Shown one piece after another: positions 1 through 31,750 of a stretch of DNA of 64,000 bases. This stretch comes from Psammoneis japonica (taxonomy: Eukaryota). The stretch is taken from assembly GCA_008632985.1 (NCBI GenBank), contig QPGO01000074.1:62001-126000 (forward strand), in the 5' to 3' direction. The notes beneath the pieces were generated by a model, which was not told where the DNA came from, made no database searches, and was given only the letters and a program-made list of their open reading frames with translations. How positions within the stretch are numbered: position 1 is the first letter of the stretch; every line of letters begins with the position of its first letter. The position numbers and the translations under genes are program-made.

Positions 1-930
1 GTCACCAAGCTCGCACAGCTCAAATTTGCTGGTCACAATCAGGACAAGCCTGCCCAAGGCATCACCCTCTTCCAATTTGGGATCACTGCACCAGACAGCG
101 CCGAACAGATTGCCTGCCACAAGGCCATGCATGTGCACATTCATGGCGGCACTGCGGCCCCGTCCCTCCAGGACACTCAAATCCTGGAAGCTCCAGACAA
201 GGCGCTCATGGCAACGACAATGCAAGCCGCCCAGCAGTCACACGATGGATGCCATCTGGTGCTTTCTGCTTTGCTTGGGGCCAACCATCCAGTCGTCCAG
301 TGGCTCACCCGTCAACGTCAAGACATGGACCGGTGCACCAATGAATTGGCAGTGCAGGCCACTTGGCACCCAAACCTTCCGGCGGACTTTCAACGCTGTG
401 CGCAGATTGAAGTTCGCCATTGGTTCAAGGCTCAAGAAGCCTCACTCCACCCGTCACCATTCGCACCCTTCAACGTTGTGTTTGAAGCAGCTAAAGGAAT
501 CATCCACTGGCGTCCGCATTTGCCTGCCAACACGCAAGCTGCCAACCCCAGTTCTGTGCTGGGGGCCGCACCGGCTCCAGCATCTCAACGCCAACCTGCC
601 AACAACACGGCCCCTGCCAGCCAAGCTGCAGGAAGCAACAGCGCAGCCCGCAATCCCTCCTGCGACAACCGCTTTGCCACGCTCCGTGACCGCCCCAACG
701 TCAGGTCACGTGATGTCAAAAACTGATGTGCAAGGGACAACATCGACCTCCCCAAAGATGCCCAAGGTCGCCCTCGTTGCTTCCCCTGCCATTGCAAAGG
801 GCAATGCAACACCAACTGTGGCTTGTCCCATGATCATCGCAATGACCACACAGAAGACGAGCAGGCCACCCTTCTCACCTGGGGTGAGGAGAACTGGAAG
901 ACCGAACAGGTCTTTGGCAACGGCCCAAGT
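1..930 (+). mobile_element. Degenerate gag-like ORF end, probably from a tyrosine-recombinase (DIRS/Ngaro-type) retroelement
   Basis: ORF 127-726 followed by a Cys/His knuckle (CFPCHCKGQCNTNCGLSHDH...EQATLLTWGEENW, ~779-900). TpA nearly absent, CpG retained. Family call is by resemblance only. Confidence 0.4.
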
Positions 931-980
931 TCGGGGACTTGGAGCCAAGAGCCTTCACCCATCACACATGGCATGAGACC

Positions 981-3502
981 ATGATGGCAGCTGGGACGAC
1001 CAAAAGTGATGAGTGGCTTGCTCCAATCAAGGGTCGTCTTCAAGAAACAGCAGGAGGAGACAAGTGGGAGGAGGAGCGTTGGACAGATTTCATTGAGGAA
1101 GCATTGTGGTCCCTGCACGAGAATGATGTCGTTGACGGAGACACGATTCGCACCGCCGAGGGCCTTGTCAAGTGCGGAGTACGAACCAAGAAGCATCTGA
1201 TTGCAATGGCCGGAAAGCCTCCCGACGATGAAAAATTGTCGAGAAAGCTTGAGGCGAAAGGCGTGTCTCTCATCATCTGTGCCATGTTGTTCAATGAGCA
1301 CGTCCATGTGAATCGAGATGGAAAGTCTGACTGCTGGCATTGTGCATGTTGAACATGAGTCAAACATGCTGAACTGTTGCTTGCACTTCTGTCCCAAACT
1401 AATGCTTCTTGTCAGTGGTGCAAGAAAACATGTTTCGTTGTTAGATGATTTTATTCAACCTTTCTCATTTTCAATTTTGGTTTGTTCTTAGACTTTCATG
1501 TCGAAGGCTCATCGAGTGCTGTTGAGGGACTCACACTTGAGCCCAAGCAAGAGCTCCATGATCCGACCAAGGATCGCAGCACAACATCTGTGCCAGATTT
1601 TTTCACGCCCACAAAGAGCAACAAGCCCAGGGACATGTTGCTGAATCGCCTTTTGGAATTAGAAGGAAAAGGAGATGGAAAACAAACACCTGATGTCGCT
1701 CCCTTTCTTGCCATTGTTCAATCGAGTGGTTGCGGGAAGACCCGATCAGTTCTGGAGCTAGCTGAGGAACAAAGAGTTGTGCACTTGCTTTGTTCTAACA
1801 TCAAGGGAGGTCTGCACTCTCCAAAGGTTGTCACTGATTTTATCAAAAACATCAAAAAGGCCGGTGCAACCGAATTTCGTGAACGACGAGCTGCCACATT
1901 TCTTCAATGTGTCAAGAAGTGCTCCGGCAAGTGCAATGCAGGACAAGAGTTGTTCTCCGCTCAATTTGAGGACGGGAGATTCGCCAATTTCTACGACGAG
2001 CTTGCAAAAGTTTATGAAGAAAACCGCACCCCTCCCACTTCCCCCGTGCAGAATGGATGCTTGGATTTGAAAAATGGCTCGTCCTCTTCCGACCGAGAGA
2101 ATTTGCCATTGGTTGTTGTGTTCGACGAGGCATTGGGTCTGACAGAATCTGATGCGCTCAACTGCAACTCGCCCTGTCGGTGCATCCGTTGGCTCCTACG
2201 TTTGAATGATTTGATCGGGCTGTTCCTCGACACTTCGGGAAAGCTGCATCATTTTGCACCGGAAAATTCCTCATCGGATGGAATCGCGGGAATTGGCAAC
2301 TTCGCAGGACCTGTGTTTGAGACAGACACTTTCGACCAGTTAAAAGATCACCTTTTCTTTCTTGGTCGTCCTTTGTGGAAAATGCAATGGGAGCATCATT
2401 TGGACAAAGACTGTGGAAAGTTGGTTGAACATGCGAGCAGCAAATTGATTCCAAGCGAAACCAAAGGTGAGGATGCAAGTTGGTTGTGCGTCCCTTTTGT
2501 TTGTCGATTTGGGTTGGAACTGAAAAAGTCTCTAGCGGAAAAGATGGTTGCCGACCACATGGCAATGCTGGTGAAAGTGAGCGAAGACTGCTCAACTGTT
2601 GTCACAAAGTACAAGTCGGAACCAATTCTTGCGGAAGCTGCAGCACGCATTGCTTGTTGCGAGAAATGTGAAGGCATTACAGTGAAAAGTGTGCTGAGAA
2701 ATGTAAGCGCAAATCTAGAAAACAGCATTTTGAAATGTGATGTTGGGGATCGCGGAGAAGTCGCCACTGCTGCTTGGCTTGGTTTCACTCTTGATGGCAT
2801 CCGCATGACCAAGAATTGCAACGTGGAAACGCACAATCTGTCACGTGAGGTTGACGTGTTTCAGTTCCTTAAAGTCTTAGCGCCAGATTTGTCGATGTTG
2901 CCTTATGAACATCAACTGCAGGGATGGAAGATAAACTTCACACATTTCAATCGGTTGAGCTTTACGCCCGATCGGAGCATGCTTGAAACTTGCTGGGATC
3001 GTCATGCAGCATTGCACTTGCCGGTGAAGAAGGCATTGGCATGTTGATCGCTTTGTTCAAGGAAGACACTGCGTGAAACTTTGAGGAATTTGCAACTCTG
3101 CGAGTGCAAGTCAAGAATTGCAAAAACAACTTGAGTGAGATGGCTTTGAACGACCTGTTTCAGAAGCTGGATGTTCGGCGCTGCTCCCCTCGAACCAAGC
3201 TTGCTGATGAACCTTTTTCAGTTGCCTTGGTCATTCAAGTTGGTGAAGGGGACACAGTCAATTTATGCAAACTTGCTCAACTTGGAAGAATGACTCGCAC
3301 CAGTGTGCGTCACAGCCAAAGTGTCCAACTGCAGTTGGCCTGCACTGTGTCTGGAGATTGTTGCAAAGAAATTCAGATGGTGGCAGGCAAATCCATGGAC
3401 AACAAGGACTTCATTAACTCGTCACACTCATTTCAAAATGGCAAATTTCCATGGCTCATAGATGAGCAGTTTCATGATGTCTCAACGGTCAACTCACCAT
3501 GA
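981..3502 (+). pseudogene. CR/Crinkler-like effector pseudogene (header exon + P-loop NTPase + PD-(D/E)XK-like nuclease)
   Basis: Exon 1 (981-1320) is paralogous to 7294-7633. Donor GT is mutated to GA at 1321. A phase-1 acceptor ttcttag lies at 1491. Motifs: Walker A QSSGCGKT, Walker B VVVFDEA, GDRGE and QVKN. Frameshift near 3024 and in-frame TGA near 3074. Confidence 0.7.
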
Positions 3503-4296
3503 AAAAGCAAGTGATTGCAGTGTTTGTTGCTGACAATCATCCTTTGCATTCAGAACGCGGTCCAGAAGGGTGTCTTCAATCACATCAAGCTGCATCTTCA
3601 CAAGTGAATGACCCTGATCAATGTTCCAATCAAATCCCGTGATCAAGCGATTGGCTGTTCTCGTGTTTCCATCAACCCCAGTGTCTCACTGTCGACCCAT
3701 TCAAGCTTGTGTTTTTTGTCTGTGAAACTGGATTTCTCAGTTGCATTTTTTGAAGTGCCTTGTGATGAAGACAAATCCTCAGCATTCATTTCCCAACATT
3801 GGAGTGCTGTGTCCTTGCTCTTTGCACAACACTTTCTGGGTCTGGTTGTCCCACTCAGAATCCCCCATGCCAAGTTCAAGCTTCTTTTTGAGATGAGACT
3901 GGATTGTTGACAACTTCTTCACCATGGAATTTTGCACAACCTGTCCAGCCCAATGCTTCTGCAAGTCAAGTCATGGACACAACAAAGACAAGACTGCCTT
4001 TGTCCACACACTGTTGCAAGCACCATGTTTGCCACTGTCATGAATGGTCAACAAGAAGACTGGGTGACACCCACAATTGACTCTCTTTCCCAATTTCTTG
4101 AGCATGAATGAGTGCGCAAGTGATTTTCAAGGGGATGCTTTTGCAGAGCCCTTTCATCTCTGCATGGAATCAACCATGGAAAACAAGTGCACATCTGACT
4201 GGGCTGCTTTTTGTTGTGGGAGAAGTGGCCTGTTCCAGCTCCAGGTGATGTGCTGAGGTGCACGACCCATCCTTTGCCAATTTTTGCATTTGGTGA

Positions 4297-4428
4297 TTTG
4301 GTGCAATGAACTCCTTCAAAATTGATTTTCTCCAAAATCAAAGGGCAAGTGCACACAAAACTTTTTTTGTGCACACTGACCTTTCAATTTTCAAAAGAAT
4401 CAAATTTGAAGGAGTTCATTGTGCCAAA
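4297..4428. repeat. ~65-bp-arm imperfect inverted repeat (hairpin)
   Basis: tttggtgcaatgaactccttcaaaattgatt...gtgcacacaaaa pairs with ttttgtgcacac...aatcaaatttgaaggagttcattgtgccaaa. Confidence 0.8.
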
Positions 4429-4767
4429 GGTGATTTTTGGCCAGTGTCCCATTTTGCGTGAAAAGTGCTTTCTGTGTGCATGCTTTTTTTCATTTTTTGG
4501 AGGTCATGTTTTTGGTCTGCTTCAACTCAACTGACATCCAAGAACATCCCCTGTTTCCGCAGATGCCAGACAATTGATTTCACTGAGCATGCCATGAAAT
4601 GATGTCCTCTTGTTGATTTCTCATCCATCTCATCCACCATCCCTCAGCACACATTTTTCACTCAAATCTTCAATGCATTGTGGTGAAGAAGAGGAAGCAA
4701 GCTGGTGTTGGCCATCGACACAAGTCAGGAACTGGCAACAGCAAAAACAAAAAAGTCATCATGAGGG

Positions 4768-5100
4768 GCTGTCCTTTCCAAGACAACCTGCCCCCTCTCA
4801 AATCAATGCTGAGGGAGTGGCAGCCACTCCCTCCAACCTCATTGCTGGCAATGCTGCCATCACTCCCTCCATTGCTCTCACCGACCAAATTCCTGTCAAC
4901 CTGAACACCCCTCCACAGAAGGCCCCACTTGTTGTGAAGGGTTGTCCTTTTCCAAGGCAACCTGCCCCCTCCCAAATCAATGCCAAAGGAGTGGCGGCCA
5001 CTCCCTTTAACCTCGCCTCTGACAATGCCACAGCCACTCCCTCCACTGCTTCTGCCAGCCAAACTCCTGTGAATCTGAACCCCTCCACAGAGCGCCCCAC
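4768..5100 (+). repeat. Two diverged tandem copies of a ~175-bp unit
   Basis: The ORF repeats PFPRQPAPSQINAxGVAATPxNL...PVNLN twice (~4770 and ~4945). Confidence 0.75.
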
Positions 5101-7293
5101 CTGCATGCAATCATCCAAATGCCTTTGATGCAACCTGCAAAGATCCCCAGCATGTGGGGTTGGCGCACAATCCAAACCACACAAAGCCGTTGGACCTGGG
5201 CTGGGACTCTCATTGGTGCATGGAGACAGCAAATTTGTGCATGAGTGCTGCCGTTTTTTCTCTCAGTCCAGATGGAAAGCCTGCTTCTAGCCTGCTTTTG
5301 AACAGGCATGTTGTTGCAGATTCTGCCACAGACAGCTGCTTGGCTGAAATTGATTGTCAGCTCCAACATGCCAAGCACACAGGTGACCACTTTGAAAACA
5401 CTGATTTTGTTTTCCCAGATGGCAATGGGCTGGTTCCTTCTGCCCGACTTGTTGTTCGAAGACCGACACCCAGAATCATTTTTCATGCACCACATGGCTG
5501 CTTTGGCTTGTGACAATTCACTTGATTGTGGTTGCTCTGTGTGTTGTTCATTTGACATGCATTTTCTTCTGGCAACTCCCTTTGTGTGTTGTTGTGCCCA
5601 TTGGCGATGCTTGTTTTGTCTCTCTTGACAACTCTCATGTTGTCTTGCTTGCTTCTCCATCCCCGTCCAGCAACATGCACAAAAGGAAGCACCTGTGCAA
5701 CCTGAGCTGTTGTGAGTCTTGTGTCACCCCAAAAGAAGCATTGGAGGTGTCCCCATTTGCTGGCACAGAGAATTTTAAGGATTGGTTCAAACACCTCAGT
5801 TGTGAATCTTTTTCTCATTGCTTTTCCTGGGAAGCCACGTGCAGTGATGTTGCAAAGGCGCGGGCCAATCTCAAAAACAACTGCCCATCTTCAGACATGT
5901 GGTGGCATCTCTCATCCTCAGAGCACCTGTGTGACATCTGGTTCATGAAACTTTGCCAGAAATGTCCTGCCATGATCACCTTGAAAACACAAAAAAATGT
6001 GTTCTCGTCCAAAGAGAAGCCATCCACTTGATCGTGCAGGATTTGGTTTGTTGCTGAACATGCTTCCCAAGGGACATTGGGTGTGCAGGAGACACAAGAT
6101 GGTCACACCTGCCAATTCAGATTCTTGCCCTCAATGCAGATTTTCCAAATCGTGCCTGTTGCGCCAATCTTTGCTTCACAAAAGGAAGTGTGCAGACACA
6201 GACGATTCAGCCATGCAAGTGCATGTGTTGCTCAACAACAGAAAATCCAATGATGATCCCACCGAGCTGGAACCCGGTGTGCAGCCTCCATGCTCTCCCC
6301 AAGGAAATGCAACCAACCTCTTCAGGTGCACCGATTTTGACGACGTTCGTGCTTTGGTCAAGGAAAGGACTGCTCTCGCTTTGCACAAAACCCAGCTGCA
6401 CCTCCAGGTGACCTCTCAGATGAACAAACAGCAAAAGAAAAGAGCTGTGAGTTCTGGAACAGCTTTGGTTTGGAGGGGTTGCTGACCAAGACACATGACG
6501 CGGATGCGTCCCTGGGTGGGCTTGCCCCCATTGTGCCTGAGAATTTGGACAGCACAAGTGCTGCTTGCGTCAAACGTCGCCTTCTTTCTTTGGAAGATCC
6601 TCCAGAGTTTGTGAAAATGTGGCAGCATGAGTTGTCCATTTGGAGAAACCTGAAACAAGCACGTGCGTGGGTTGGTGGCTGAAGAAAGCAATCCACGGCC
6701 ACCAGACCGACGCTGCGTTCGAGCGCCTCCTCGCTCACGAGAGCTTCCGCGGGACGCGCCTGTCACGTGCCATCAAAGGGACAATGAATGCATGCCCAGC
6801 ACATTCAACCACATCTCTCTGTTTTGGTCCATGCTCCAGTGTTCCATGATGGCAAACAAACAACTTCATCTCCTCCAATTCTCTGAAAAAAGGCGACACT
6901 TCATGCCCAAACACAACCAGCCTCACATCTGCTTCACCTGTCAGGGCAGAAAAAATCACCTGTTCACAAAAAATTGCAGGAGATAAAGTTGATTGCGTGT
7001 CACTGTGTGACACTAGAGCATGAAGTAAAATAGAGAGCCATGATCGAATGCCGGTTGCCATCAATGATGCCCTAACACGTTGCTTCGTGTTGCCTCCGTA
7101 CGGTGTTGTTGTACGGCGCTGCTCGTACCGCGTGCAAGTCCTTCTACAGTACGCACGCAGATTGCTGCTACTCACGGACGTGGAATTTTTAATCAGATTA
7201 TTCGGAAAAAACTGGCCTTGCGCTCGGCGCGCGATCCGAGATACCATAGAGAGAATAATAGAGACAGCCGCAAGCACACTGCACACTGAGACC

Positions 7294-9881
7294 ATGATGG
7301 CAGCTGGGACGACCAAAAGTGACGAGTGGCTTGCTCTGATCAAGGGTCGTGTTCAAGAAATAGTAGGAGGAGATAAGTGGGAGGAGGAGCATTGGACAGA
7401 TTTCATTGAGGAAGTATTGTGGTCCCTGCACGAGAATGATATCGTTGACGGAGACACGAGTCGCACCGCCGAGGGCCTTATCAAGTGCGGAGTACGAACC
7501 AAGAAGCATCTGATTGCAATGGCCGGAAAGCCTCCCGACGATGAAAAATTGTCGAGATTGCTTGAGGCGAAAGGCGTGTCTCTCGTCATCTGCGCTATGT
7601 TATTCAACGAGTACGTCCATGTGAATCGAGATGGTAAGTCTGACTGGCGTTGTACATATTGAATATGAGTCAAACATACTGTACAGTATCTCGTTCTTGG
7701 TTTCTATTGTTCCATCGCATATACGGTTTCAACTATAAAAACTCATCCTGATTGTACTTGTCTATTCTTTTCAAAGTAGCTTCACTACAGCAGCAGCAGC
7801 AGCAGCGGACTGGCATGTTTACTGTCTTCGTGAGAAACCACAATTTGTCAGTCACGAATGTTATTAAGTTCCACGATAAGCGTTTTCCATCGACTGTGGG
7901 TGAGTTCTGGGAGGCGACAGGCCTTGAATGGACCATTGACTCTGCGTGTGTCACGGTAAAAATGCTTATGGGCTGGGAAAAATTGAGCGACAATCCCAAA
8001 AATACAGCAAATTATGCTGAGGGTGACCCCAGCTTCGGGATTATGTTTCAGTTGTCGCCTTACCGTACTCCTACATCAAGTCCTACTAGCGACGAATACA
8101 TCAGTATCCAGGCCGAGGAGGAGTCGAATTTTGCTGAATGTATCCAAAACTTATTTCGCGAGAATCCTTTCAATGCAGCTATACCAGAGCTGTACGAAGA
8201 CGAGGCCATCCGTGGGTTACGATTGTTCTTCCAGCAGGGAAGAGAAGAAAGAACAAGGTCGTTGGCTTCGGAGGTGAAAACGCTTGCTCTGATATTTGCG
8301 ATGCCCGGGGCAGGAAAGACTCGGACTGTACAAGAAGCAGCTCATAGTCTTGGTTTGGAGTATCACAGATTCAAGATGTCTAACGCAAACTTGTCCACGA
8401 TGAGAGAGGTAAGGCAGTTCCTCTTGAAAAGGGTAGCAACACTCTGCGACTGCGAAACGAATGCGATACCTCTAGAGAGAAAGGTGCTGGTGCTTCATTT
8501 TGATGAAATTCAATCAATTATGAGAGCTCCACGTGATGACGGAGACAGAGATAATTCCCTTGTGACCACGCTGGCCAAAGAATGTGATGCGTTGATTAAC
8601 AAACATGGGGAGAACCAACGTTCGTGGCTCAAGTTTGTAATGACAGGCACCAATATCTTCTCGGACACACAGATCAATGTGGGCAGTCAAGTGAAAACAG
8701 AATTGATACCGATGGGGGGCTCTTTTTCTCATGACTTTGTATGCCAGCTTGCGAGGAAATATAATCTCATGCCATTTTTCGCTGAAGACAACGAGAAATA
8801 TCTGGAACGCTGTCGCCACAACCGACGCTTTACCGAACGATTTTTCTGTGCTTTGTGGGACAAACGAGGCGAGGGCATCGCTGATCCCTCCGTTGTGGAT
8901 GATGCGTATCACTCGGCACTTAGTGCAATGAGTCGACAAATTGCTGGAAACATGGGAGGAGAAACTATCAACGTATCTTCAGTTGCATGCACTGTCTTCG
9001 CAAAGATTCTGGATATCAACTCTGAGATGATAGTCAACGGCATCGCAATACTCAAAAACTGTTCCATGACTGAGAAGTCTTATATTGCGGGTGGCGGGCT
9101 CAACGTGAAGGAAATGATGGGGAGCGATATTTCAATCTTCTACCCCGCTGGATGTGTTCTCGAGCTCCTTGAACGACTGCTTGCCCGTACGAACTCACGA
9201 CACAGCTGCAACACTGTTATATCTTTCCTCCGCGTCAGTGGAGTCCTTCAGTTTGGAATCAAAGGCCATTTGTTTGAATGGCTGGTGGCCTACGATATTT
9301 CGTCTCCTCGTTCAGAATTTGATGCGCTGATGCCGCCTAATCGCAAGCGTCTCTCGGAATGCATTGGCGCAGTTCCACTCTCTTGCCCAAAAGTCTATGA
9401 GAAGATTGCCGGCGGTGACACAACGAACTATGCATGGATCGTTTTGGACCAGCACAACGCTCATCAAAATCGATGGATAGACTTTGCATACTCAATTGAA
9501 GTCCCGGCTGGTTTCAAGGCTGCGTACATCATAGTGGAATGCAAAACGGGATACAAGAAGGACCGAGCAAAACTGAAGGGAAACTGTGAAACGTTCTTCG
9601 CGAAGGCTTCTGAGTATGCAGGAACTAAATCGGACTTCTTCTTTATGGCCGTCTTTGCATGTGAGCACGAGTTCAATCATGAGGGGTATGCAGAACATCC
9701 AAGAAACTTGGAGACTGCTGTCGCGGTGGTTAATGAGGTGTCTTGTCCCACAATCGCCCGTTTTCTTTGCGCCGACCACAGCAATTCAGGTGACGTAAAC
9801 GCTCTTGTCCACGAACTCACATCTGCGGTGATTCGTGATGATGGGGCAAAGCCGTACCCCGGTGGTACGCCGTGTAAATAA
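7294..9881 (+). CDS. CR/Crinkler-like protein: N-terminal header + P-loop NTPase + C-terminal PD-(D/E)XK restriction-like nuclease; 2 exons (7294-7633, 7777/7780-9881)
   Basis: GTAAGT donor at 7634 and in-frame phase-1 acceptors at 7776/7779. Walker A MPGAGKT, Walker B VLHFDEIQ, KGHLFE, WIDF...IIVECKTG. Normal TA/CG content. Confidence 0.75.
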
Positions 9882-10339
9882 CTTTCTCTCTCGAGGCACT
9901 ACGGGCATCGTCGCACGTGTTTACGGCAGTGATGGTTCGACGAAACAAGCTCGTTTGAATGCCTCAGTACCCTTGATGGTGTCCGTTGTCTGTGGCAACT
10001 GGCAACGTGTCTTATTCAACTGAAACTTCTGCCCCGGTGTAACTCGCTGACTGCTTTTTTGGGACTTTTACCTTCCGCTTGGGATCCCACACAGCAGCTG
10101 CTTTAGTTTGTACAATTTTGGGGCGTGGGCGACTCGGTAAAGTAGTTTATGCGAAAGCTTCATCCAAGGATGATAGGAGTGCGAATCCTGGAATGGCACC
10201 GGCACCTAGCTAGACTCGAACATAGTAGAGATCCAACTCATCAAAATGCACTAAATGATGTATGTTGAAATCCACTACTTTATATCCCATCTATCCCTGC
10301 CAATTCACTGGATGGCACTTTTCGTCACCATCACAGCAC

Positions 10340-10490
10340 CCTGTACAACAGTCGCAAGTGTTGATTGGATTGGATTTTCTTCAGGGACCGCAATCTGCTG
10401 AGCAGGCGAATTTCGGAGGGGACTTGCCCTTCAAACTCATTTATGTGAATCCATGCGATGTACAATTCACTCAGTTCTGACAGCTCCATT
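10340..10490 (-). pseudogene. Leucine-rich-repeat gene fragment
   Basis: LSELYIAWIHINEFEGQVPSEIRLLSRL resembles the NxFxGxIPSEIGLLxxL LRR. No full ORF. Confidence 0.45.
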
Positions 10491-10519
10491 GCAGAAAGAC
10501 AATTTTGGAGCAATCACCT

Positions 10520-11790
10520 GACGATTGCCCTCTGTCCTCTGTCACTCGTTCTCATCTTCTCTTGTGGCTGATGATGCACTCCCTGCAGAGCTCTGTCTCT
10601 GGTTGGTTGTGGTGCAAGCCACAAGGAACCAGACCTTGAGCAGGATCTTGCATCTTGGAGGAGCCCAGAGATGCAGAGCTCCAGCAGGAGAGCTCTCTCT
10701 GCTCATTGACAAGTGAAGTGCCATTGATGAAAAGAAGAAGTGAGCTGCCAGCTGGTGGAGAAGTGGCTTTGAACCAAGTGCAGAGTCAAAGAGTCTGTTG
10801 AGAATGGAAGGAGGCAGGGAAGCAGCTGCAACAGTGGAAGAGTGGCAGGGATGCATGATGCAGCATGTGGTGGGAGGCAGATGAGTCAGTGTGAAGGAAG
10901 GAGGCAAAGCAAACAAGAGCATCATGGAAAGATGGTGTGCTGGGCTGTGCCCAAGCACTTGAATGGCCCATTGAGATGGAGAGGCTGAATCATGCATCAC
11001 TGGAAAGGTGGTTCAAGGCAAAATCAGCAGAAGGAAGAAGGGTGGATGGAGAGGTCAGAGCATAGAGAAAGGTGCAGTGGAGAGTGTCAGAGTTGCAGAG
11101 GTCAGAGGAGGAGGACCAAAAAGGCTTGTTGGGCTGCCTGACAGCAGGTGGAGGAAAGCAAAGAGCCAAAGAGAAATTGATGGCCAAAGAAGCCAAGGCC
11201 GCCAAGGTGATCTCAACAGTGAATGGGAGAAGGAAGATGCCATTGTCATTGAGCAAGGCAATTGTGAGGTGTCCATCAGCAGAAGTGGCAGAGGGTCCAA
11301 GAAACTTCATTCTCGTCACACTTGAGTGGTGTGCCTCAGTTAAAACAGGGGAGGAGGGAGTGGGCAGACCAGGAGGAGGGGGGAAAGGAGCTTGGGGAAC
11401 AGCAACATCAATGGCAACACTGTGGTGGTGGGAGGGAGCTGAGAAAGAGAAGCAGGAGGTGGTGCAGAAATGCTGATGCTGCCAGGGCAGACAGAAGTGG
11501 GCAGGTGGGAACTGGGTTTGCACAGGCTCAAGGTGAGTGTTGTGAGAGGAGTGACAGAGCTTGGTTGTGAGGGTGTTCTGGAGTCTTGCACAGCAGGCCT
11601 CAGTGTGCACATGGCATCTGACATGGTGTGGAAGCATGTCACAAGTGAAAACCCCTGTGCAAGCATGGGGGCACACTGCACTTTTGATGAGATTTCGAGC
11701 AAATTCTGTTGCATCATGTGGAGTTTGGTGTGCTGTCACTCATCAGACACCAGTGATGGTTGGGGCTCAGTCAACCATTGTGTGATGTGA
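10520..11790 (-). mobile_element. Degenerate 3' part of a non-LTR retrotransposon (restriction-like endonuclease type)
   Basis: ORF 10990-11739 contains SVAIDVAVP and LLPFTV motifs, the latter followed in an adjacent frame by DHLGGLG. TpA-depleted. Confidence 0.35.
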
Positions 11791-12340
11791 TGTTGGAGGG
11801 AAACTTGACAATCAGAGTGGGGGACAATTTGCCCGGGGGGGGGCAATCGAATGGGGGCAATCAAACAATTTGGGCAAGCCTTTGATTTTCAATGTGGGTT
11901 TTGGGTTTGTTGCATTTGGGGCTCGGCCGCATCACAATGAATGAAGTGACACCCACGTGCTCAATTTTTATTTTGGTTCCTCTGAGGAGCCCAGAAATGC
12001 AGAGCTCCAGCAGGAGAGCTCTCTGCTCATTGAGAAGTGAAGTGCCATTGATGAAAAGAAGAAGTGAGCCACCAGCTGGTGGAGAAGTGGCTTTGAACTA
12101 AGTGCAGAGTTAAAGAGCCTGTTGAGAATGGAAGAAGGCAGGGAAGCAGCTGCAGCAGTGGAATGGTGGCAGGGACGCATGATGCAGCATGTGGGGCATT
12201 TGGCAGAAGGGACAGGAGATGAGTCAGTGTGAAGGGAGGAGGCAAAGCAAAGTGCATCATGGAAAGATGGTGGCTGGGTTGTGCCCAAGCATTTGAGTGG
12301 CACCCATTGAGATGGAGAGGCAGAATCATTCATCACTGAC
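10657..12340. repeat. Direct repeat pair ~350 bp (10657-11000 and 11984-12340)
   Basis: gaggagcccaga.atgcagagctccagcaggagagctc... aligns. Differences include gaaccaag/gaactaag and gagtcaaag/gagttaaag. Confidence 0.85.
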
Positions 12341-13604
12341 CCTCGATGGCAATGAATTGAAAGAGGTGCTCAGAGGCCATGTGGCAAAAGAGACTGTGAA
12401 GATGATCCAAGGATGCCTTTTTGAGAATGGCCGGACAAAGAATCAAGACTTGGTCAAAGATTGTCACAGACAGCCAGGCAGACAGGAAGAATGTGGCCAA
12501 TTGGCTTGAACAAGTCATGAGCCACATGAGCTGGACTTGGGGGCTTGGACTTCTGGCAACCATGGATCACAAGAAATTGGTCTGTCTGACAGCAAACATG
12601 ATCCACATTGTTGAGGTTGGTTCTTGAAGAGTGAGAGAGAGAACCAGAGAGCCTGTGGCAAAAGAGCTGTTCAGGAAAAACTTTTGGCAGCCATGAAAGC
12701 TTTCAGTCAATCAAGTGGGGGACTTCAGTGGAACCCAGCATGAATTTATGCACATGCTTCACCGTGTTGCAAAATTGACAGCATGATGAAAGCAAGCACC
12801 ATGGAAAGCCACAACTGCTTCTGACCACATTTGACAATTGGAAGAACACTCTGGGGCCTGCCAAATGACAGTTGTGCTTTGACACATCTGACAACAAGTT
12901 GTGCCAGTTCAATGTCAGAACTGAAGTTGTTCATTGATTGCAGCTCTGTGAAGCATTGCTGGACAATTGCCAGTGATTTGTGCGGCAATTTGGCAATTGA
13001 TTTCCTGTGCTTCACCATGGTGAACTTGGGAATTGTCCAAAACAGTTCCTTCAACAAAATTCTGAACAAAAGTTTCTGTCATCTTGCATCAGAAAACATG
13101 TGTCTGGGACAAGCTCGATGACATCACTGTCTTTCCAATTGTCATTTGGACGTTTTCCACCACTTGCCAGTTTTGCCATGCTTTCACCATGTGATTTCAA
13201 TTCACAACATGGCAAAGTGCATGGTGTGGAATTTCATGCTGTTTGAGTGCTGCAGTCCCCCATTTGCCCGATTTTGAAAAACTGAAAGTGTTTGTGGCAG
13301 AGAGCAGGCAGCCAACAAAGGAAAAACGCAAGCATTGCATGAGAGCACAAAAACTCAAAATTGTGAGAGTTGAGAACTGGGACACACGGCATTTTGTCGC
13401 CAATTGCGACATTCCCATAAATGAATTGGACGATTTGTCGTGAAAAACGCCCTTTGAGACAAATTTCAACCGTTGGCGATAAATAAGACAAAATCATCAT
13501 TTAATTGGCGATGGCGTGTCCTAAACACACACGTTATATCAACTACAGTGCTATATGATGAATTTAACTTTCGGCGAAGACTGTACTTATTAATTAATGT
13601 TTTG

Positions 13605-13820
13605 GCGATTTTGTCGTACGTACGACAAATTTTGTCGGATACGACAAATTTTGTCGGATACGACAAATTTTGTCGGATGTACGACAAATTTTGTCGGACG
13701 TACGACAAATTTTGTCGTATCCGACAAACCCCGACAAACCCCGACAAACCCCGACAAACCCCGACAACGTACGACAAACGCCGACAAGAGCCGACAAGAG
13801 CCGACAAACGCCGACAGACG
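13605..13820 (+). repeat. Array of CGACA motifs: five palindromic acgacaaattttgtcg units, then ~10 units with 10-bp period (ccgacaaacc and variants)
   Basis: Read directly from the sequence. Confidence 0.9.
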
Positions 13821-14088
13821 GACGTTTGCGACATACCGATAACGCAACGCTCCCCAACATTCAGAAGTGCCCAGTCGTACTGATAAAAGGTACAGTACAG
13901 CAACACATACCGGTACATTCCGTTGCACTATGTAGAAGTGTTGTTGTCCCGGTATTGACGAGAGTATGGAGACCGCCGAGAGCGGCATGATCGTCGCTTT
14001 GCATCATCGCGCAAAAGAGACATACCGGTAGTGTCAACGGAGACGTTAGCGGTTAGCGTGTGCGGGGGGCGTGGGTGTTTCGTTCGTG

Positions 14089-14283
14089 AGTCGTCGTGTC
14101 GTGACGTGTCGTGTCGTGTCGTGTCGTGTCGTGTCTTGTCGTGTCGTGTCGTGTCGTGTCTTGTCGTGTCGTGTCGTGTCGTGTCTTGTCGTGTCGTGTC
14201 GTGTCGTGTCTTGTCTTGTCTTGTCGTGTCGTGTCGTGTCGTGTCGTGTCTTGTCGTGTCGTGTCGTGTCGTGTCTTGTCGTA
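14089..14283 (+). repeat. (GTCGT/GTCTT)n pentanucleotide microsatellite (CGACA on minus strand)
   Basis: Read directly from the sequence. Confidence 0.95.
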
Positions 14284-15719
14284 TGCCGACAAATTTTGTC
14301 GGACATCCGACAAATTTGTCGGATGAATTTTCGTCGATGACATCGATCGCCAAATTCTGTTAATTACCCCACTTATTGAAACGACATCGCCAAAGTTCAG
14401 GTTGGTTATAAATGACATTAATCATTTTGTAACTTAATTAAACAATGTTTCTGTCCCGTTTATCGCCAACCCGGACATTTTGTCGCAATTCGCGTCTTTT
14501 CGCGACAAATCATCAATTCATTTAAGAAAATGTCGCCAAATGCGACAAAATGCCGTGTGTCCCTGTGCTAAAAAAATCTGTGTAGAATGCAGCAGATCTG
14601 TGCACAATTTTGCTTGCAAGATCAGAGCAAGATTGCCCACCCAACCAAACAGCCTTTCAAAAGACTGGACATTGGTTGGAGCAGATGCAAAATTTCTGCC
14701 AACAGAAAACAAAAAGGAGGCCTTCCCTCAAGTGATTTGGATCAAACAATTGGATCGAACCTGATGTTGGCTCCAAGCTGCAATTTTGAAAGAGAGGAGT
14801 TGTGAGTGGACACAATGTGCAAAAATGCACGCGCAAAAGGACACACAAGAAAGGGCATCAGAAAATTGGAGAAATTTTGGCGGGAAGTTTTTCTGTTGAC
14901 ATCAGAGGGGAAGTTTTTCTGTTGACATCAGAGGCCGCAACACAGTGGTTCCCACTTTCCTTTGTAAATTTTTTAATGTGCATTGTCAAGATTGTCAACA
15001 AGCAGAATTTGAAAAATGCCAGCAAAAGTGCTCAACAAAATGCGGCTGTTTTGTGCATTTCATCTGATGTCTCATTGACTTTTCTTGCACAAGCTTCAAT
15101 CAAATGCGTGCAATCTTTGATCTGGTTGGGATTGAAATCTGTTTTTTGTGATGCACAATTTGGTTTCCTTTTGACTGCAGTCAATTTGAACTTGGTTTTA
15201 ATTTTGTCCTCCTCACTCACATGCGTGTGTCTTCACACGTGTGCAGTCTGCTGCACATGCAGTGCTTCACGCACGCACATGACCCACCTTCATTTTTCTT
15301 CATGTTTCCCAGATTTGCGCAGCCTGTTGGTCTGCAGCATTTTCAGCACATTTTTTACATGCACAATTTTCTGCACATTTCATGACAGCACACCCTCTCC
15401 CCAAAATTTGAAAAACGAGAGCGTGCGCTTGTTGTGACTCACGTGGATCCCACATGTGGTCGCAAATCTGCAAATCAACAACTGGCCATGGCGGTGAAAG
15501 ACTTTGCCCCATTGGCTGATGACAGTGGCTCAACATGTGGTGAAACCTGCTGTCCTTCTGGTTGGTCAAGATGGGTTTTGATTCAGGCACAGCTTGTGTT
15601 TTGTGATTGCGAGTGTGCTGTCACAAATCTGTGGTGTCCAAAATGCTGAGCTGCTTGTGTGTTGTTGTGTGCACGCACGTCACAAAGTTGCTTTTCTGCA
15701 GTGTTGGCATGATCGTGCA

Positions 15720-16330
15720 TGTCAGAGTTTTGCATCCAGAATCATCACAAGTTGCCACAAATGACACTCTTCAAACAAGGCATGTGCAAAAAGAGGTTCA
15801 TTGGTTTTTGATGTGTTTGCCAACAATGCATCCTTCTTCTCCACTTTCCATGCCCAGATCCAGAAAGAGTGCAGGCAGTGCTGCTTGTTCCTGCAGCTCT
15901 CAGAATCACATGCATGAAAAGTTCTTTTCCATGCATGACACTCTTCAAAAAAGGCATGCTCAAAAAGAACTTCACTGGTTTTTAACATGTTCACTTGTGT
16001 TGCATCTGTCTTCTCCAACCTCCACATCCAGATCCAGAAAGACTGCAGAGGCAGAGACTTTGGAGGCAACCCATTGGGGGTTGCCTGAGTTGTCAGGCTC
16101 ATTTTTGAAGGCTTCCCAAGTCTGTCTGCTGTTTCTGGTCCACACTCTAAACATGTCGTCGATGAACCATCCGCAGCATGGGAGGTGCAGGGCAAACTCA
16201 GTCATTGGCACATGCCTTTGTTGTTTGTGCAGCACCTTGCACAGTGTGGCACACATGCAGGTGGCGCTTGTTCCCACAGCTGTTCCAGCAAGTGCATTCT
16301 GTGGCACTCAAGATGTTTTTTGCTTGCTCA
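15720..16330 (-). mobile_element. Penelope-like retroelement reverse-transcriptase fragment with an internal ~180-bp duplication
   Basis: GTAVGTSATCMCATLC, FIDDMFRVW, AVFLDLDV and THQKPMNLFLHMP match PLE RT motifs GTAMG..YA, YxDD, FLDL and YxKP. Confidence 0.7.
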
Positions 16331-16414
16331 CATGCTTTCTTTCTGTGTTTTCTTGGAGTTGCAGGAGTGGAGCTGGGTGCTTGACATCTTGCACCACACA
16401 CCAGCATCCACATT

Positions 16415-16890
16415 GCTCTGGAATCAGTGGCGCTGGATGCACCAATGCACCGGCAAGTGTGTGTTGTGGTTCATGTTAGTTCATCCACATTGTGCTCTCA
16501 CAATGCTGTGCTCTGCACTTTTTGGCAATGAATGAGGTGGGTCAGATGAGCAACAACGCTCATGCTGCAAACCTGCCTGCTCCAGAATCAGTGGTGGCGT
16601 TGGATGCACTGGCAAGCCCATGTTTCCATTCCTGTGGGTTGTGTTGGTTCATCCATGTTGTGCTCTCACAATGTGTTTTGCTCTTTTTGGCAATGAATGA
16701 GGTGGAGTGGAGCAGCGGCACTTCAAACAATGGAACAGCAGCTCCTGCTGCAAACTTGCCTGCTCCAGAATCAGTGGTGCCGGATGCACCAGTGAGCCCA
16801 TGTTGCCATTCCTGTTGGCAGTGTTGGTTCATCCACATTGCACTCTCACAATGCATTCTGCACTTTTTGGCAATGAACAAGGTGGCTGCC
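16415..16890 (+). repeat. Three diverged tandem copies of a ~165-185-bp unit
   Basis: ctccagaatcagtgg...ttcatccacattg..ctctcacaatg...ctttttggcaatgaa repeats at ~16417, ~16580 and ~16762. Confidence 0.8.
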
Positions 16891-17779
16891 ATCAGCAGCA
16901 CTTCAAGAAAGCGAGCTGCAACTGCTGCTGCAAACTCTGGGGTGTTGTCTCCACAAGCATCATTCAACTTAAACATGAACAACAAAATGGAATGTTCATG
17001 GTGCAATGCAAATGATTTTAATTTACAGGTTTTGCAGGGACAGAGGGTGGGCACTCTCATGGGGAAAACGTGCCCCTGTTTCACAGCAAAACTTTGTGTT
17101 TTCCTGACAGGGAGTGGGGGTCTGACCCCACAGTGTGAAAATGTTCATCTGTCACAGTTGACATGTTGTTGCCAGCTGCACAACTGTCAAGGTTTGAAAC
17201 AACAGAATTTTGCACTGTGACAGATTTTAAAAATTGCTGTGAGAAAGGTGGTCTGGATCACTCCAAAATGCATGCTCTGATGCTTGATCTCAAATGTGGC
17301 AGACATGACAAGGTCAGGCTGCATTGACAACACACTCATGTTCTGACATTGAGATCAGAAAAAACAAGGTCAATTGTGCTGCAATCCTGGTTGACTGGCT
17401 TGCAGAGGTCACCCGGATCCAGTGCAACCCAAGAGTTCTTTTTGCGTGCTGCCGGCGGGAACATTCCCAGCCTGCCAAAACAAAACACCGAACTGCATTG
17501 TTCGCACTCTGACAAGTCAGATGCAGCAAGAGCAGTGCAGGCATCATGCACAATTGGCTTGGCTCGCGGAATCTCTCTGGATCCAAGAACGACGGCTGAC
17601 TCATCGTGGTGTTGCAGGCTGATCAAGATGGTGGTCAAGCCAGCTCATCTGCTGCTGTGTCAATCAGCACCATGTGCAGCTCATGGGTGATTACATGAGG
17701 CATGCCACTCGGCAGAAGCAATGTTTTCAGTGTTGTTGGCCCATGACTGATCCCATCGTCACCGGCAGTCCACCAAACA

Positions 17780-25479: not shown

Positions 25480-25899
25480 ACTCTTGCTTTTTCTTTGTTA
25501 TGTATCGAACACCCCCCTTTCAATGAGATGAGAACATATGAATGGGTTCCGTCTGAAATTCTGGTTCTAGTCTAGCAGTTTGCAGTTTGTGGCGCCGATG
25601 CTTCGCAGCCGCACAAAGCCTGTGTAGGAGCCGGTACACTTTGTACGCAGACGGACACAAAGCTCCAAAGCGCGAAACGTGCAGAGGGCTTTTTTGAATC
25701 ATCTTTTCTTACTCGCGCAATTCTCATTGCTTGTTGACTTGTCCTTGGAGTCTCGGCTGTGATTCTTCTTCCTCGACATTCGAATTGATCTCTACCCGCC
25801 GACGATTGTTCGAAGGTAGCTTAGCCAGCGGCACAAGGCTGACCGAGAAATGGTCTTGAAGGCCAAGTTTTGGCACACCTTTTGTGTCATGGGACTGCG

Positions 25900-27500
25900 G
25901 CAACAAGGCAAGATTCCCAGAGGTGCTGCATCCGCGTCACAGACGAGAACAAAGAAGGAATGTTCACATCTCATCAATGGCAGACAGCTCAATCCATTGA
26001 TCCAGGTTGCAAAGACTTGGAGCTGATTGGTCTGACAAAATGGGAATTGCCTGACCTGTCTCACGGCTCCTTCCTGACCTCCATGTGACCACTGGCGCAT
26101 TTGCACACTTGCGTCCCCAATCACACACACAGAAGACACTGAATTCTACACTCAACTTGTTTGCCTGAGATCATGTGTTGCCACATGCTGCCTCTTTGTT
26201 GAAAATCCCATGGAGTCTTCTGCAAATCGATGCTGGTGGTTGGCTGGTGTTTGAAGTTCTGGGTGTGCACTGTGCACAGAGGCAGCCACAAACTCATCCA
26301 CAAACACGCACATTTCACCCTTTCTTGTGGAGAACCAGACCTTGTCGATGACTTGTCCCCAGATAGAGCCCTCAAAGACACTGGGCCTTTCAAGCAGATC
26401 CACCATCTCTCCTGTGCCAGTTTTCCTGGCAGAGCTGGTGGTGCGCCACCATGTGTGTGCGGTGGCTGTTTGATGCCCTGCACAAGATCCAGTGTGATGC
26501 TGGCATTTCCTTGAAGCATGCTGACAATGGCAGGTGGTGGTCAGCAGTGGCACACCATTTGCACAGAACTGATCCTGCTCTGCTGCTGTGGTTGGCACAA
26601 GGCTTCCTGCAAGGGAAAGGCTGCATTGTTCGGAGTGGGCTTGGTGTTTGTGGAGCCTTTCTCCCTCATGAAAAACCCACCCATGTGATGGGAGTCCACC
26701 TGCTGCAGTGAGGTCATTCACTTGGTGCATGTGCAGGGCCAACTTGCCACAAAAGACCATTCCACAGGGCTCCTTGAGATGACAGAGGTGGCTCTGGTGG
26801 CAGCATCTCTGGCCCTTGGGTGCAGGCTTCCAGTGTGAAGTGGTGCGTGCAAAGCCAGTGGATCGTTCAGACATTGCAGTGTTCTTGGCCCAGCAGGTCA
26901 TGTGGCACAAGGCAGACAAGGCATTGTGGCCACAATGCTGGCAGTGGGAGTCATGCCATCATTGTCTCTGCAGGAGTGCCTCTCTGAGCAGCAGCAGCTG
27001 CAGTGTTGGCACATGTGGCTTTGGCGCACATGCAGCACACATTGACCCAAACAATGTTGGCAAATGCCAGCAAATGACCAGCATTGTTGGCTGCTGCTCT
27101 TGCAGCCAAGGCTGGGATTTCCCAACAGAAGACTCTCCACCCATGTTCCTTCAAGCCAACATCCTTGGCTGGGGGCAGCAACATTGTGGCATGGTCACCC
27201 AGACAATGTGTGGGATTGGGGTCAGCAGCTGTGTGCATGGATGGCCAGCACTCCACTCTCAATTCAAGGCTGTGGATGAGGGAGATGCATCTGTCCTTCC
27301 CCACTGAAGCTCCAAGATCTGGCTTTCTCTTAGACAGCAGAGCACAGAGAGCTGTCCTGGGAGTTGCCATGTGTCATCTGCAAGATTGGCAGTTGGAATC
27401 TGTCATGAAACTGATTGTGACAGAGGGCATCATGTGAAATGTTCATGATTGTTGTGCAGAAGCTGCTTGGGATTTGGACACTTGACAATGTGGCATTGTG
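25900..27500 (-). mobile_element. Highly degenerate retroelement fragment (possibly non-LTR 3' region)
   Basis: TpA/CpG-depleted with fragmentary Cys/His knuckle-like text (TADHHL..CQHASR). No clean ORF. Confidence 0.25.
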
Positions 27501-27999
27501 GTTTTTTGGAATTGTCTGAGATTGCCCAATTGTGAGAATGCATGCATTCATGCATGAATGTGCCATCAAGTTAAAGAGTTACAGAGACCTGTCGATGGTC
27601 ACAAAGACAGGCAGGAAACTGCCATCAATGTCTCAACCAATCACAGATCCAGTGACCAATGAATTCCAAGGTCTGAGGTTCAAAATGAGAATGGAGTCTT
27701 GCTTCTGTTTTTCTTTTGTGCAATCAAGAACTTCTGGTTCTTGATGAGTCTTCACACCATGTGCATCTGTGTCGCTTCCAGCACCAGTGCAAGTCACTTC
27801 TTGTTTTCTCTCAATTGTTGCTCGTTGTCAAGCAGCCCAATTCTTGTTCTCACAGTTTAGAAATTGGCAAAACTGCTCCTGCTTGATCATCTGCTTTGCC
27901 ATTTTGCTCTCTGCAACACAAAAACTGCCACAAACCCACACACTTCCTCTGCACTGTAGAGACCTGACTTGCTTCAAAATTGTTGCAGAAACCAGAGCC

Positions 28000-30020: not shown

Positions 30021-30029
30021 CCCCCCCTC

Positions 30030-31750
30030 CCCATTGCAAAATCTCCCATGGCACCTCAATTGTGCGTGCACTGCCTGATTCCCGGTCAACAAATCCATTC
30101 AGCTGAACACTCCTCATCCTGCAGTGCCGCTTTCACTGTCTCTCATCTCCGCGCACATGCCTTGACATCTTTCTTGCTGTTTTCTCTTGCCCTCCCTGAG
30201 GCAATCTCAAATCGGGTCTCTTCAAATGCAATCCTCTGGGCCTGGAAGGACAACAATCCCATCACAAAGTTGTTGCTGGGAATTCCACAGCTCCAGCTGT
30301 CAAACTTCACCTCAAACACCATCTGTCACTGCACTGCTTGGGTCTGGGTGAGCCAGGTTGTTCAAGCAAGCAACAACATTGAGTGCCGGTTGCACAAAAT
30401 CAGGGGCTGCAGGGAGACTGATGGTCCCCACTCCCAACATCAAATGCAACAGCATTCACATGGACTCTTTCAGCCATTCCAGATGACATTTGGACAATCC
30501 CAGGATGTGAGTGAGTGGGGCAGCACTTGCCAGTCTATCATGAAATGGCTTCAGATCACTTGTCACCACAATGACCACACACTGCACAGTCACACCGCTG
30601 AATTGCTTGGGTCATGTTCACTTGGCAATCCATTGGCAATCTCCCCTTCTGGGGAGGCAGCATCCTCAATCCCCAGGACCAAGCATTTGTCATTTCCTTG
30701 CCATCTCCAATTGCTTTGAAAGTCTTGCAGTGTTTTCATGGGAAAGCTTCCCCATTGAGACAAACAAACATTTCTGTTGGGAGACTGTTTTGACCACTTT
30801 AGATTCATGTGATGACATGGATGAAGTTGAAAACAAAGGTTGGTTGCAGCATCATGGTGACATTCCCCTCCTCAGCAATCTCCTGGGTGTGGGTGGTGCT
30901 CACCTCTGACTCATGCTGTGTCAGAGCTTCATCTTCTGCCATGTCGGGTTTAAAAGGCATGCAAAGCAGTGTTCATTGCAGGTGGCAGTGAAGTTTTTTT
31001 CAAGATCGCATCACAGACCCCATGACTGTTGCCAAAAATGGATCACTTTGTGCAGGATTCTCCTGGGGGAGTGGTCACAGACATTTCCATGTTCTGTCAT
31101 TGGCACTGTCCAGTTGTGCTTCTTGCAATGATTGCATTGATGCACCCTGATGAACGAATGGGGGGTCACAGAGTGACTCTCCTTTTTTTGTCTTTTGTTC
31201 CGATTGAGAGAGTGATTGCAACAACTGTTTGTTGATCAGCTTCTTTTCCAGTGGGCAACTCAGTCTGCACAGTGGGATGAGATTTGCCCCATTGTCCATC
31301 CATTTTGCTGGCTTGCAATTGTGCTTGCATGGCTTCCCAAGGCATGTTCTTCTGGATGTGTTGGGAGGAGTTGTCGGGCAGGTGGGGCCTGGCCAAACAT
31401 CAAGGCAAACAAGCTGGGCATCCTCTGAAAAAACAGGATCATGGTTGTCTCGTTCATGCTGGCATTGACGCACCGGTGCACAATCATCAATGGCTGCTGT
31501 CCATGGGCAATCAGTTGCCAACGTTTGATGCGGGAAAACTGGCATTGTGCTGAAATCATTTGTGTGAGAATTGCATAAAATGGCAGCCTAACCAACTGGG
31601 GTTGTCGAGTCCCAATCATCATCAATGTCTTGTTTGTCACAGTTGTCCTGGGGAGAATGGCCACCAGGCTCATGCGGCAAAGATGTCTTGCGCAACGCGA
31701 CTTGGTCTGCATTGAAGTTGCATCTTTTCCTCCTGTGCACAACAATGCAG
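30030..31750 (-). mobile_element. Degenerate non-LTR retrotransposon fragment (endonuclease-like region)
   Basis: Weak resemblance (NASMNETT ~ DANE motif). TpA/CpG-depleted and frameshifted. Confidence 0.25.

Follow-up and report, generated by a model that had tools for sequence, protein, structure and literature searches.

The window analysed here, a 64-kb stretch of the Psammoneis japonica contig QPGO01000074.1 (positions 62,001–126,000; coordinates below count from its first letter), carries the first exon of an AAA ATPase gene twice, at about 1 kb and at about 7.3 kb, and the copy at 1 kb lacks nearly all of the TpA dinucleotides found in the other. A regional process that turns TpA into CpA or TpG in place, together with a slower decay of CpG, very probably explains this exon pair. 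The 1-kb copy would sit in a chromosomal domain where the change, from A:T to G:C, took place after the duplication and where CpG would decay at a lower rate, to TpG or CpA. The 7.3-kb copy would lie in a neighbouring domain that was left untouched and would have kept the ancestral TpA. The exon pair and the two long terminal repeats (LTRs) of a retrotransposon in the same window give what composition cannot: the direction of the change, its timing (after duplication or integration) and its sequence context.

TpA loss in one copy of a duplicated exon

We aligned the 1-kb copy (974–1375) with the 7.3-kb copy (7287–7685), both on the forward strand, using MAFFT. The pair is 93.0% identical over 399 shared columns, with 28 substitutions and one 3-nucleotide (nt) indel. 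The 7.3-kb copy contains 16 TpA and the 1-kb copy only one. In the 1-kb copy, seven of the 16 sites read CA, six TG and two AA, and the sole TpA kept is in a GTAC (7493/1185). Loss of CpG lags behind loss of TpA (5 of 24 versus 15 of 16 sites of the 7.3-kb copy), the five CpG reading TG or CA in the 1-kb copy; conversely, the 7.3-kb copy has CA at one site where the 1-kb copy has CpG. Apart from these, the copies differ by seven transversions, two of them at the sites that went from TA to AA, and at 1024–1025 by a CA|TG swap (CA in one copy, TG in the other). Bases in TpA amount to 8% of the 7.3-kb copy, and 13 of the 21 transitions fall on them (binomial P = 6e-10 for 13 or more); no transition falls on ApA. 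Changes at TpA in the 1-kb copy are T-to-C in seven cases and A-to-G in six, interleaved and with both strands represented. The changes do not cluster by strand along this copy, their 8 runs being close to the 7.5 expected from a hand calculation.

The original prediction, made by eye from the letters alone, had counted 16 TA sites in the intact copy, of which 13 are TG/CA, two AA and one retained, and had proposed that this change dominates the divergence. The alignment and dinucleotide tally over 974–1375 and 7287–7685 bear out every number that it gave: the TA count was reproduced exactly and the share of transitions at TpA confirms the dominance. Its estimate of about five changed CpG in some two dozen agrees with the tally, except that one of the five (at 1272) may be a gain in the 7.3-kb copy. 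The limits that it placed on the homology (981–1372 and 7294–7683) are slightly narrow, as self-BLASTN of the window finds the exon-pair homology confined to 974–1371 and 7287–7681. The homology runs from 7 nt upstream of the ATG to about 50 nt past the splice donor, inside the intron. Because it extends into the intron, exon 1 was duplicated at the DNA level and the 1-kb copy is not a processed one. The splice donor is gone from the 1-kb copy (GGAAAGT versus GGTAAGT in the 7.3-kb copy).

Direction of the change

Two aligned sequences give no direction, and exactly such CA/TG-to-TA differences arise in fungi through repeat-induced point mutation (RIP), the most familiar of the dinucleotide mutators linked to repeats. 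A RIP-like change of CpA or TpG to TpA in the 7.3-kb copy, with the 1-kb copy ancestral, would produce the same pair. The direction was examined with relatives of the exon peptide. No close protein relatives of it were found at similar length or among longer proteins: a representative protein library holds 58 relatives, all at no more than 54% identity over the matched stretch and the best-scoring at about 45%, and polarity is therefore testable at the amino acid level only. Metagenome DNA gave no match to an exact 46-nt word of the exon, and a search with the family alignment returned two short loci only (L001 and L002, 44–48% identity), which served solely as composition baselines with an observed/expected ratio (o/e) for TpA of 0.56–0.59.

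The 13 TA sites include six amino acid differences, which we compared with 22 family homologues. All four informative codons favour the residue of the TA copy and none favours the 1-kb state: Val over Ala at residue 41 (19 versus 2 among 22 homologues with the residue), Tyr over His at residue 107 (16 versus 2 among 21), Ile over Val at residue 63 (16 versus 5 among 22) and Val over Ala at residue 24 (10 versus 7 among 20). Residues 23 and 50 were uninformative. A third genomic copy, one contig of sequencing run X1 aligned to window positions 1–13000, has TG at 1283–84 and at 1299–1300, two places at which the 1-kb copy has CA and the 7.3-kb copy TA. Parsimony favours TA as the ancestor at both, as it requires two single transitions and any other starting state three.

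Composition and duplicates elsewhere in the window also speak against the reversed polarity. TpA o/e in the block of the 7.3-kb copy (0.58) matches that of housekeeping blocks (0.49–0.54) and of the contigs of the two relatives, whereas in the block of the 1-kb copy it is 0.02–0.10. Furthermore, the CA|TG swaps between duplicates described below are impossible to obtain from CpA-to-TpA changes. We consider an ancestral 1-kb copy highly improbable. The original prediction had proposed TpA loss in this copy, and homologues, third copy, block context and CA|TG swaps all agree with it; TG/CA states siding with the 1-kb copy in other paralogues or orthologues, which would have made the 7.3-kb copy the derived one, were looked for in the 22 homologues and the third copy and were not found. 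The comparisons thus support TA as the probable ancestral state, retained at 7.3 kb and lost at 1 kb.

A mosaic of TpA-poor and normal blocks

Segmentation of the window gave six TpA-poor blocks totalling 34.9 kb and five normal blocks totalling 28.6 kb (Table 1). TpA o/e is 0.05 in poor blocks and 0.54 in normal blocks, and CpG o/e 0.28 and 1.01, respectively. CpG depletion is confined to the TpA-poor blocks. CpA/TpG is in excess in the poor blocks (o/e 1.73 versus 1.18), and ApA is similar in both types (1.20 versus 1.14). The loss is strictly specific for TpA and leaves ApA untouched. The blocks to which it is restricted have sharp edges, a few hundred bases wide at most. G+C is equal in the two block types (0.488 in poor and 0.491 in normal blocks) because the AT-to-GC change at TpA is offset by the GC-to-AT change at CpG, and G+C profiles are therefore blind to these blocks. 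The 1-kb copy is flanked on both sides by strongly depleted stretches, and its own gene region is at an intermediate stage of depletion (TpA o/e 0.10–0.27, CpG o/e 0.68–0.85). The loss of TAA and TAG stops from poor blocks is accompanied by long overlapping open reading frames (ORFs) on both strands, for example in 1–7000.

Table 1. Positions of the exon copies, genes, retrotransposon and composition blocks in the window.
Feature	Position	Strand	Details
TpA-depleted exon 1 copy (N-terminal domain)	974–1375	+	ORF 981–1352, exon equivalent 981–1320; alignment, tallies
521-amino acid ORF 3' of depleted exon copy	1482–3047	+	partly TpA-depleted
TpA-retaining exon 1 copy	7287–7685	+	exon 1 7294–7633, GTAAGT donor at 7634
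Rest of intact gene	7634–9881	+	intron 7634–7779 (GT..AG), exon 2 7780–9881
Exon 2, AAA ATPase domain	7780–9881	+	Pfam PF00004, E 1.9e-05; about 700 amino acids
Histone-deacetylase-family gene part, normal block (reference)	49412–50126	-	Pfam PF00850, BLASTN
Decayed deacetylase-gene copy, left half	55015–55523	-	split by LTR element; TpA and CpG partly lost
Decayed deacetylase-gene copy, right half	61122–61531	-	less depleted, 3 TpA versus 8 in reference
LTR retrotransposon, 5.6 kb	55524–61121	+	defined by structure
LTRs	55524–55745 (222 nt), 60884–61121 (238 nt)		direct repeats, TG...CA ends
Target-site duplication, 5 nt	55519–55523 and 61122–61126		GAGGC
TpA-poor block with depleted exon copy	1–6881		sub-blocks 1–2554 and 3029–6881 flank less depleted 2555–3028
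Sub-block	1–2554		TpA o/e 0.10, CpG 0.68
Less depleted stretch	2555–3028		TpA o/e 0.27
Sub-block	3029–6881		TpA o/e 0.02, CpG 0.32
Normal block with 7.3-kb copy	6882–10442		TpA o/e 0.58, CpG 0.96
TpA-poor block	10443–13352		TpA o/e 0.04, CpG 0.12
TpA-poor block	14612–17731		TpA o/e 0.05, CpG 0.27
TpA-poor block, 16.4 kb	25861–42252		TpA o/e 0.04, CpG 0.25; tandem duplication and MYND-finger ORF inside
TpA-poor block centred on LTR retrotransposon	55306–61398		TpA o/e 0.08, CpG 0.20

Loss in place after duplication and integration

The retrotransposon provides an independent view of timing. Its two LTRs differ at 29 of 229 columns, five CA|TG swaps included. The two LTRs of an element are identical at insertion, and the swaps between them therefore point to independent loss in each LTR after integration. 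The element splits a decayed copy of a histone-deacetylase-family gene, and in the intact paralogue the corresponding insertion point is contiguous at 49742–49746. This paralogue, which lies in a normal block, serves as the reference in a second paired control (49412–49746 versus 55015–55523, the latter from the poor side), with ten TA-to-CA/TG and seven CG-to-CA/TG changes. By our own segmentation, the block extends beyond the two ends of the element by about 220 and 280 nt. Such comparisons indicate that the loss has spread 200–500 nt from poor blocks into flanking gene copies. The left half of the decayed deacetylase copy also carries an internal tandem duplication of 168 nt (55080–55355/55248–55523), and its two repeats resolved the same reference TpA sites independently.

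The 16-kb poor block contains a further duplicate pair, a 2.5-kb tandem duplication (35219–37009/37730–39018) with 176 transitions in 1263 columns. Adjacent transitions form 63 pairs, of which 49 are CA|TG swaps; 2000 shuffles gave 24.2 +/- 4.1 adjacent pairs and 38 at most. Swaps of this kind are expected if a TA or CG present in the ancestor decayed separately in the two copies, and they cannot be made by CpA-to-TpA change. The contigs of run X1 aligned to window positions 1–13000 gave 976 variants, with 775 transitions as against 193 transversions. Among the 40 of the 976 that were listed, 14 form seven CA|TG swaps, 13 are CG/TG/CA differences and one is TG to TA. Taken together, the duplicates point to a process that acted on each copy independently, both LTRs of one retrotransposon included, and to transitions that struck both DNA strands after integration.

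An edited RNA intermediate was considered as the source of the same changes. ADAR-like enzymes could have converted A to I in transcripts that were then reverse transcribed and integrated in an already edited state, and one of the poor blocks is indeed an LTR retrotransposon. ADAR is also stated to prefer an A that follows U (Mettrop et al., bioRxiv 2026, 10.64898/2026.01.13.699255). However, the T-to-C and A-to-G changes of the exon copy are interleaved and not strand-pure, and the continuation of its homology into the intron argues against a processed copy. LTRs that were identical at integration now differ by five CA|TG swaps, and flanks that do not belong to the transposon are depleted too. 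We give RNA editing almost no credence as the source of the loss.

The poor blocks could also have been created during sequencing or assembly, if heavily modified TpA and CpG bases were misread as CA or TG in long reads. Modified bases do cause systematic errors in long reads, and no platform is recorded for the assembly or for runs X1 and X2. Yet contigs of run X1, which may be the assembly's own sample, match the poor blocks with three differing letters in 544 (5244–5787) and five in about 900 (10987–11888). The changes also look like products of evolution, with CA or TG arising independently in each duplicate, missense changes and a 5-nt target-site duplication. Furthermore, the depletion is graded by sequence context and by distance from the LTR element. 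An artefact of base calling or assembly is very unlikely to account for these patterns.

Sequence context of the loss

The TpA that survive in poor blocks reveal a tetranucleotide preference in which RTAY (R, purine; Y, pyrimidine) is the most sensitive context and YTAR the least. Only 3 of these 117 TpA are in RTAY (none in ATAC/GTAT, one in ATAT and two in GTAC), whereas in normal blocks this context holds 331 of the 994 (Fisher P = 2e-15). The share of YTAR is 66 of 117 in poor blocks (31 TTAA, 25 CTAA/TTAG and 10 CTAG) and 172 of 994 in normal blocks (Fisher P = 1e-18). The density of half-sites in poor relative to normal blocks increases in the order TAT (0.03), TAC (0.05), TAG (0.13) and TAA (0.22). 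The polarised pairs behave alike, with 4 of 9 YTAR retained versus 3 of 35 other TpA (P = 0.02). All 16 TpA of the 7.3-kb exon copy are in RTAY or mixed contexts, with which the near-complete loss in the 1-kb copy is in keeping. The 521-amino acid ORF downstream of the 1-kb copy retains 19 TpA. YTAR contexts hold 11 of these and Tyr codons only four, and the Tyr content of the ORF is 0.8% versus 2.3–4.3% in genes of normal blocks. The TpA left in this ORF are thus explained by context and not by selection.

The chemistry of the process could be enzymatic deamination of adenine in DNA, by which a TadA/ADAT-like or other deaminase would convert A to inosine, which is read as G; we regard this as a real possibility that falls somewhat short of being probable. 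TadA and ADAT2 have in common with the present pattern that U precedes the edited A in their natural tRNA target, a link to this genome that we infer purely by analogy. In bacteria, TadA acts on the A of UACG, a substrate that would agree with the preference for TAY.

A different chemistry would leave the regional loss of TpA real and change only its agent. For example, a modified thymine at TpA (5-hydroxymethyluracil or base-J-like) could mispair with G, or repair after deamination of methylated CpG could be error-prone. TpA is self-complementary, so A-to-G on one strand is indistinguishable from T-to-C on the other, and the restriction of CpG loss to TpA-poor blocks fits a coupling to repair. 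However, a WA signature of the polymerase-eta type should also strike ApA, whose o/e does not fall in the poor blocks and at which the exon pair has no transitions; such a signature is therefore unlikely. TpA loss also outpaces CpG loss in the exon pair. Thymine hypermodification is not known from diatoms, although no search aimed at it was made. Agents of this second kind seem less likely than adenine deamination but are the main alternative to it, and they merit more weight than an artefact or edited RNA does.

Observations that weigh against regional TpA loss

Some of the evidence runs against the in-place loss of TpA in the 1-kb copy and its targeting to mobile DNA, or leaves part of the case to inference. 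Only 5 of the 13 sites in the exon pair are polarised directly (all toward loss in the 1-kb copy), and the rest are assigned from the block in which they lie. Judged by the outgroups, it is the 7.3-kb copy that has changed at three residues: Arg33His, through CpG to CpA, as well as Ile56Ser and Lys89Leu. Outgroups favour the 1-kb state at 1272 (Ile 7, Val 0), and their residues suggest that this one of the five 'lost' CpG may be a gain in the 7.3-kb copy. At 1292–93 the third copy has TG and the two window copies share CA, a pattern that takes one more change or a previous hit on the 'intact' copy. A rule by which the strand struck is the one with a pyrimidine after the A held at 11 sites and failed at 6, a weak and non-significant excess. 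Pfam identified no reverse transcriptase, integrase or other domain in the 13 ORFs of the LTR element, and among 45 ORFs of the poor blocks it detected no transposon or viral domain and a single MYND finger. Lastly, word depth in run X1 is single-copy-like across the poor stretch 5209–6881 (about 60–77 over 5209–6944).

The untouched AAA gene (7813–10416) has a summed word depth of 226–332 in run X1, with one 962-nt contig at 225. Word depth is not copy number; the gene may nonetheless be multi-copy, which would argue against a simple targeting by repetition. Single-copy-like depth in a poor block and higher depth in the untouched gene indicate that repetition alone does not explain which regions are targeted.

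Comparison with known mutators

The closest parallel to the regional loss of TpA comes from the chlorarachniophyte Bigelowiella natans. In mutation-accumulation lines of this alga, two integrated viral regions were described as mutating about 1000 times faster than the remaining genome, almost only at TpA and toward TpG or CpA, and the genome contains clusters of 1-kb windows that are TpA-poor and rich in CpA and TpG (Mettrop et al., 2026). According to the main text of that preprint, the targets are an integrated giant virus and virophage, and an ADAT2-like deaminase is proposed as the agent; reported activity of TadA/ADAT2 on DNA is cited there (Mettrop et al., 2026). When we applied the cut-offs given in the preprint, 32 of the 64 1-kb windows passed, in runs of 4, 3, 16 and 6; CpA+TpG was scored by a measure of our own, for which the o/e values of the two dinucleotides were averaged.

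As far as the preprint describes its case, the two systems are alike in that changes are almost only from TpA to TpG or CpA, are confined to regions, and leave clusters of TpA-poor windows rich in CpA and TpG. They differ in several respects. The host is a chlorarachniophyte there and has a diatom-like genome here, and the viral targets reported for B. natans contrast with the LTR retrotransposon, repeats and adjacent copies of host genes affected in our window. CpG is co-depleted here and RTAY preferred, whereas the words 'CpG' and 'context' are absent from the main text of the preprint, which does not report CpG transitions (Mettrop et al., 2026). The depletion is also deeper here, with a TpA o/e of 0.05 versus the Rho of 0.45 given for the viral region of B. 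natans. On the other hand, the evidence in the preprint consists of de novo mutations and ours is comparative only. In a literature search that covered subscription journals poorly, we found no report of TpA loss in diatoms. So far, a regional mutator restricted to TpA has been described in only one other alga, B. natans. The analysis adds direction, timing, context and coupling to CpG to the signature known from the B. natans preprint.

Fungal RIP resembles the process described here as a regional mutator that acts on DNA, changes dinucleotides by transition, ruins repeats copy by copy and leaks into neighbouring genes. The outcome is different, however, because RIP makes TpA from CpA and lowers G+C, whereas the poor blocks are nearly devoid of TpA and have normal G+C. 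As regards a trigger by duplication, as in RIP, the untouched copy shares 400 nt at 93% identity with the affected one, and word depths, which are not copy numbers, do not track block type. The decay of CpG through 5-methylcytosine is consistent with the CpG o/e of 0.12–0.68 and the excess of TpG and CpA in poor blocks, but it cannot remove TpA, which accounts for 13 changed sites in the exon pair versus five at CpG. In animals, APOBEC enzymes, which turn C into U in DNA, and ADAR enzymes, which turn A into I in RNA, similarly hypermutate retroelements by deamination and with a preference for the neighbouring base. Unlike the changes described here, which affect both strands after integration and include flanks, theirs show a strand bias and arise while the element exists as RNA or is being reverse transcribed.

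Other features of the window

Pfam assigned the genes of normal blocks to a threonyl-tRNA synthetase, an EF-hand kinase, a second kinase, a MYND protein and a histone-deacetylase-family gene. The exon of the threonyl-tRNA synthetase is no more than 88% identical to database proteins. It is 80% identical to a model from Pseudo-nitzschia multiseries, the only hit assignable to a species and one of just two with an organism-specific source label. Introns are few in the genes of the window. On these grounds we describe the genome as diatom-like. The peptide of the duplicated exon (981–1319/7294–7632) is a domain of about 110 amino acids without a Pfam family and with conserved Trp, Leu, Gly and Cys positions. 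Its relatives carry the domain at the N-terminus of proteins of 62–710 amino acids with differing C-terminal parts, some of them with a P-loop. The 521-amino acid ORF that follows the 1-kb copy is unrelated to exon 2 of the 7.3-kb gene (best E 0.22). One contig of run X1 follows the 7.3-kb copy as far as 7623, after which it resembles the sequence from 1369 onward. In run X2, a contig from a paralogue with a differing exon end joins 7623 to 7779 without the intron. These joint contigs indicate that further paralogues exist, of which one seems to have a GC-type donor. Within window positions 1–13000 the coverage of run X2 is limited to parts of genes. The run looks transcript-like but is labelled 'DNA?', and we draw no conclusion on expression from it.

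The 16-kb poor block contains a 433-amino acid frame with a MYND zinc finger (31806–33104, reverse strand, E 1.3e-06). This frame may be a host-type gene caught in a depleted domain. We tried to pair it with the MYND gene of a normal block (44394–45107) as a third control and rejected the pair, as the match is restricted to the domain (37% over 68 amino acids).

An island of 1.26 kb (13353–14611) between two poor blocks has a TpA o/e of 0.58 and a CpG o/e of 1.80. It is bounded by inverted repeats of 59–64 nt (13370–13506/14436–14572) and contains a 10/15-nt tandem array (14039–14331) and palindromic repeats of 19–21 nt (13608–13728). The island looks like a terminal-inverted-repeat element that was inserted after its surroundings had been depleted.

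A possible defence against mobile DNA and its consequences

The affected domains would be silenced repeat chromatin with methylated CpG, and the process would act there as a genome defence, the mirror image, as it were, of fungal RIP. We tentatively propose that diatoms carry a defence akin to RIP but of opposite effect, in which a DNA adenine deaminase at silenced chromatin would erase TpA, RTAY first, from integrated mobile DNA after its insertion and would spread a few hundred bases into neighbours.

Half of a 64-kb window being almost TpA-free in a diatom-like genome suggests that a widespread counterpart of RIP has been overlooked in a major group of marine algae. Scans based on G+C miss the poor blocks, whose G+C is normal, and the loss of TAA and TAG stops leaves long false ORFs on both strands. 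Genes adjoining poor blocks change quickly, with loss of Tyr and of splice sites. If the proposed defence exists, its spread would drive Tyr-to-His/Cys and Ile/Val changes and would destroy splice donors in neighbouring genes. Should chromosomal DNA be the substrate of an adenine deaminase, the enzyme would be of interest for base editing, and the system would represent a natural A-to-G DNA editor working in a double-strand context. Together with the case of B. natans, it would also mean that such systems are widespread in the supergroup of stramenopiles, alveolates and rhizarians.

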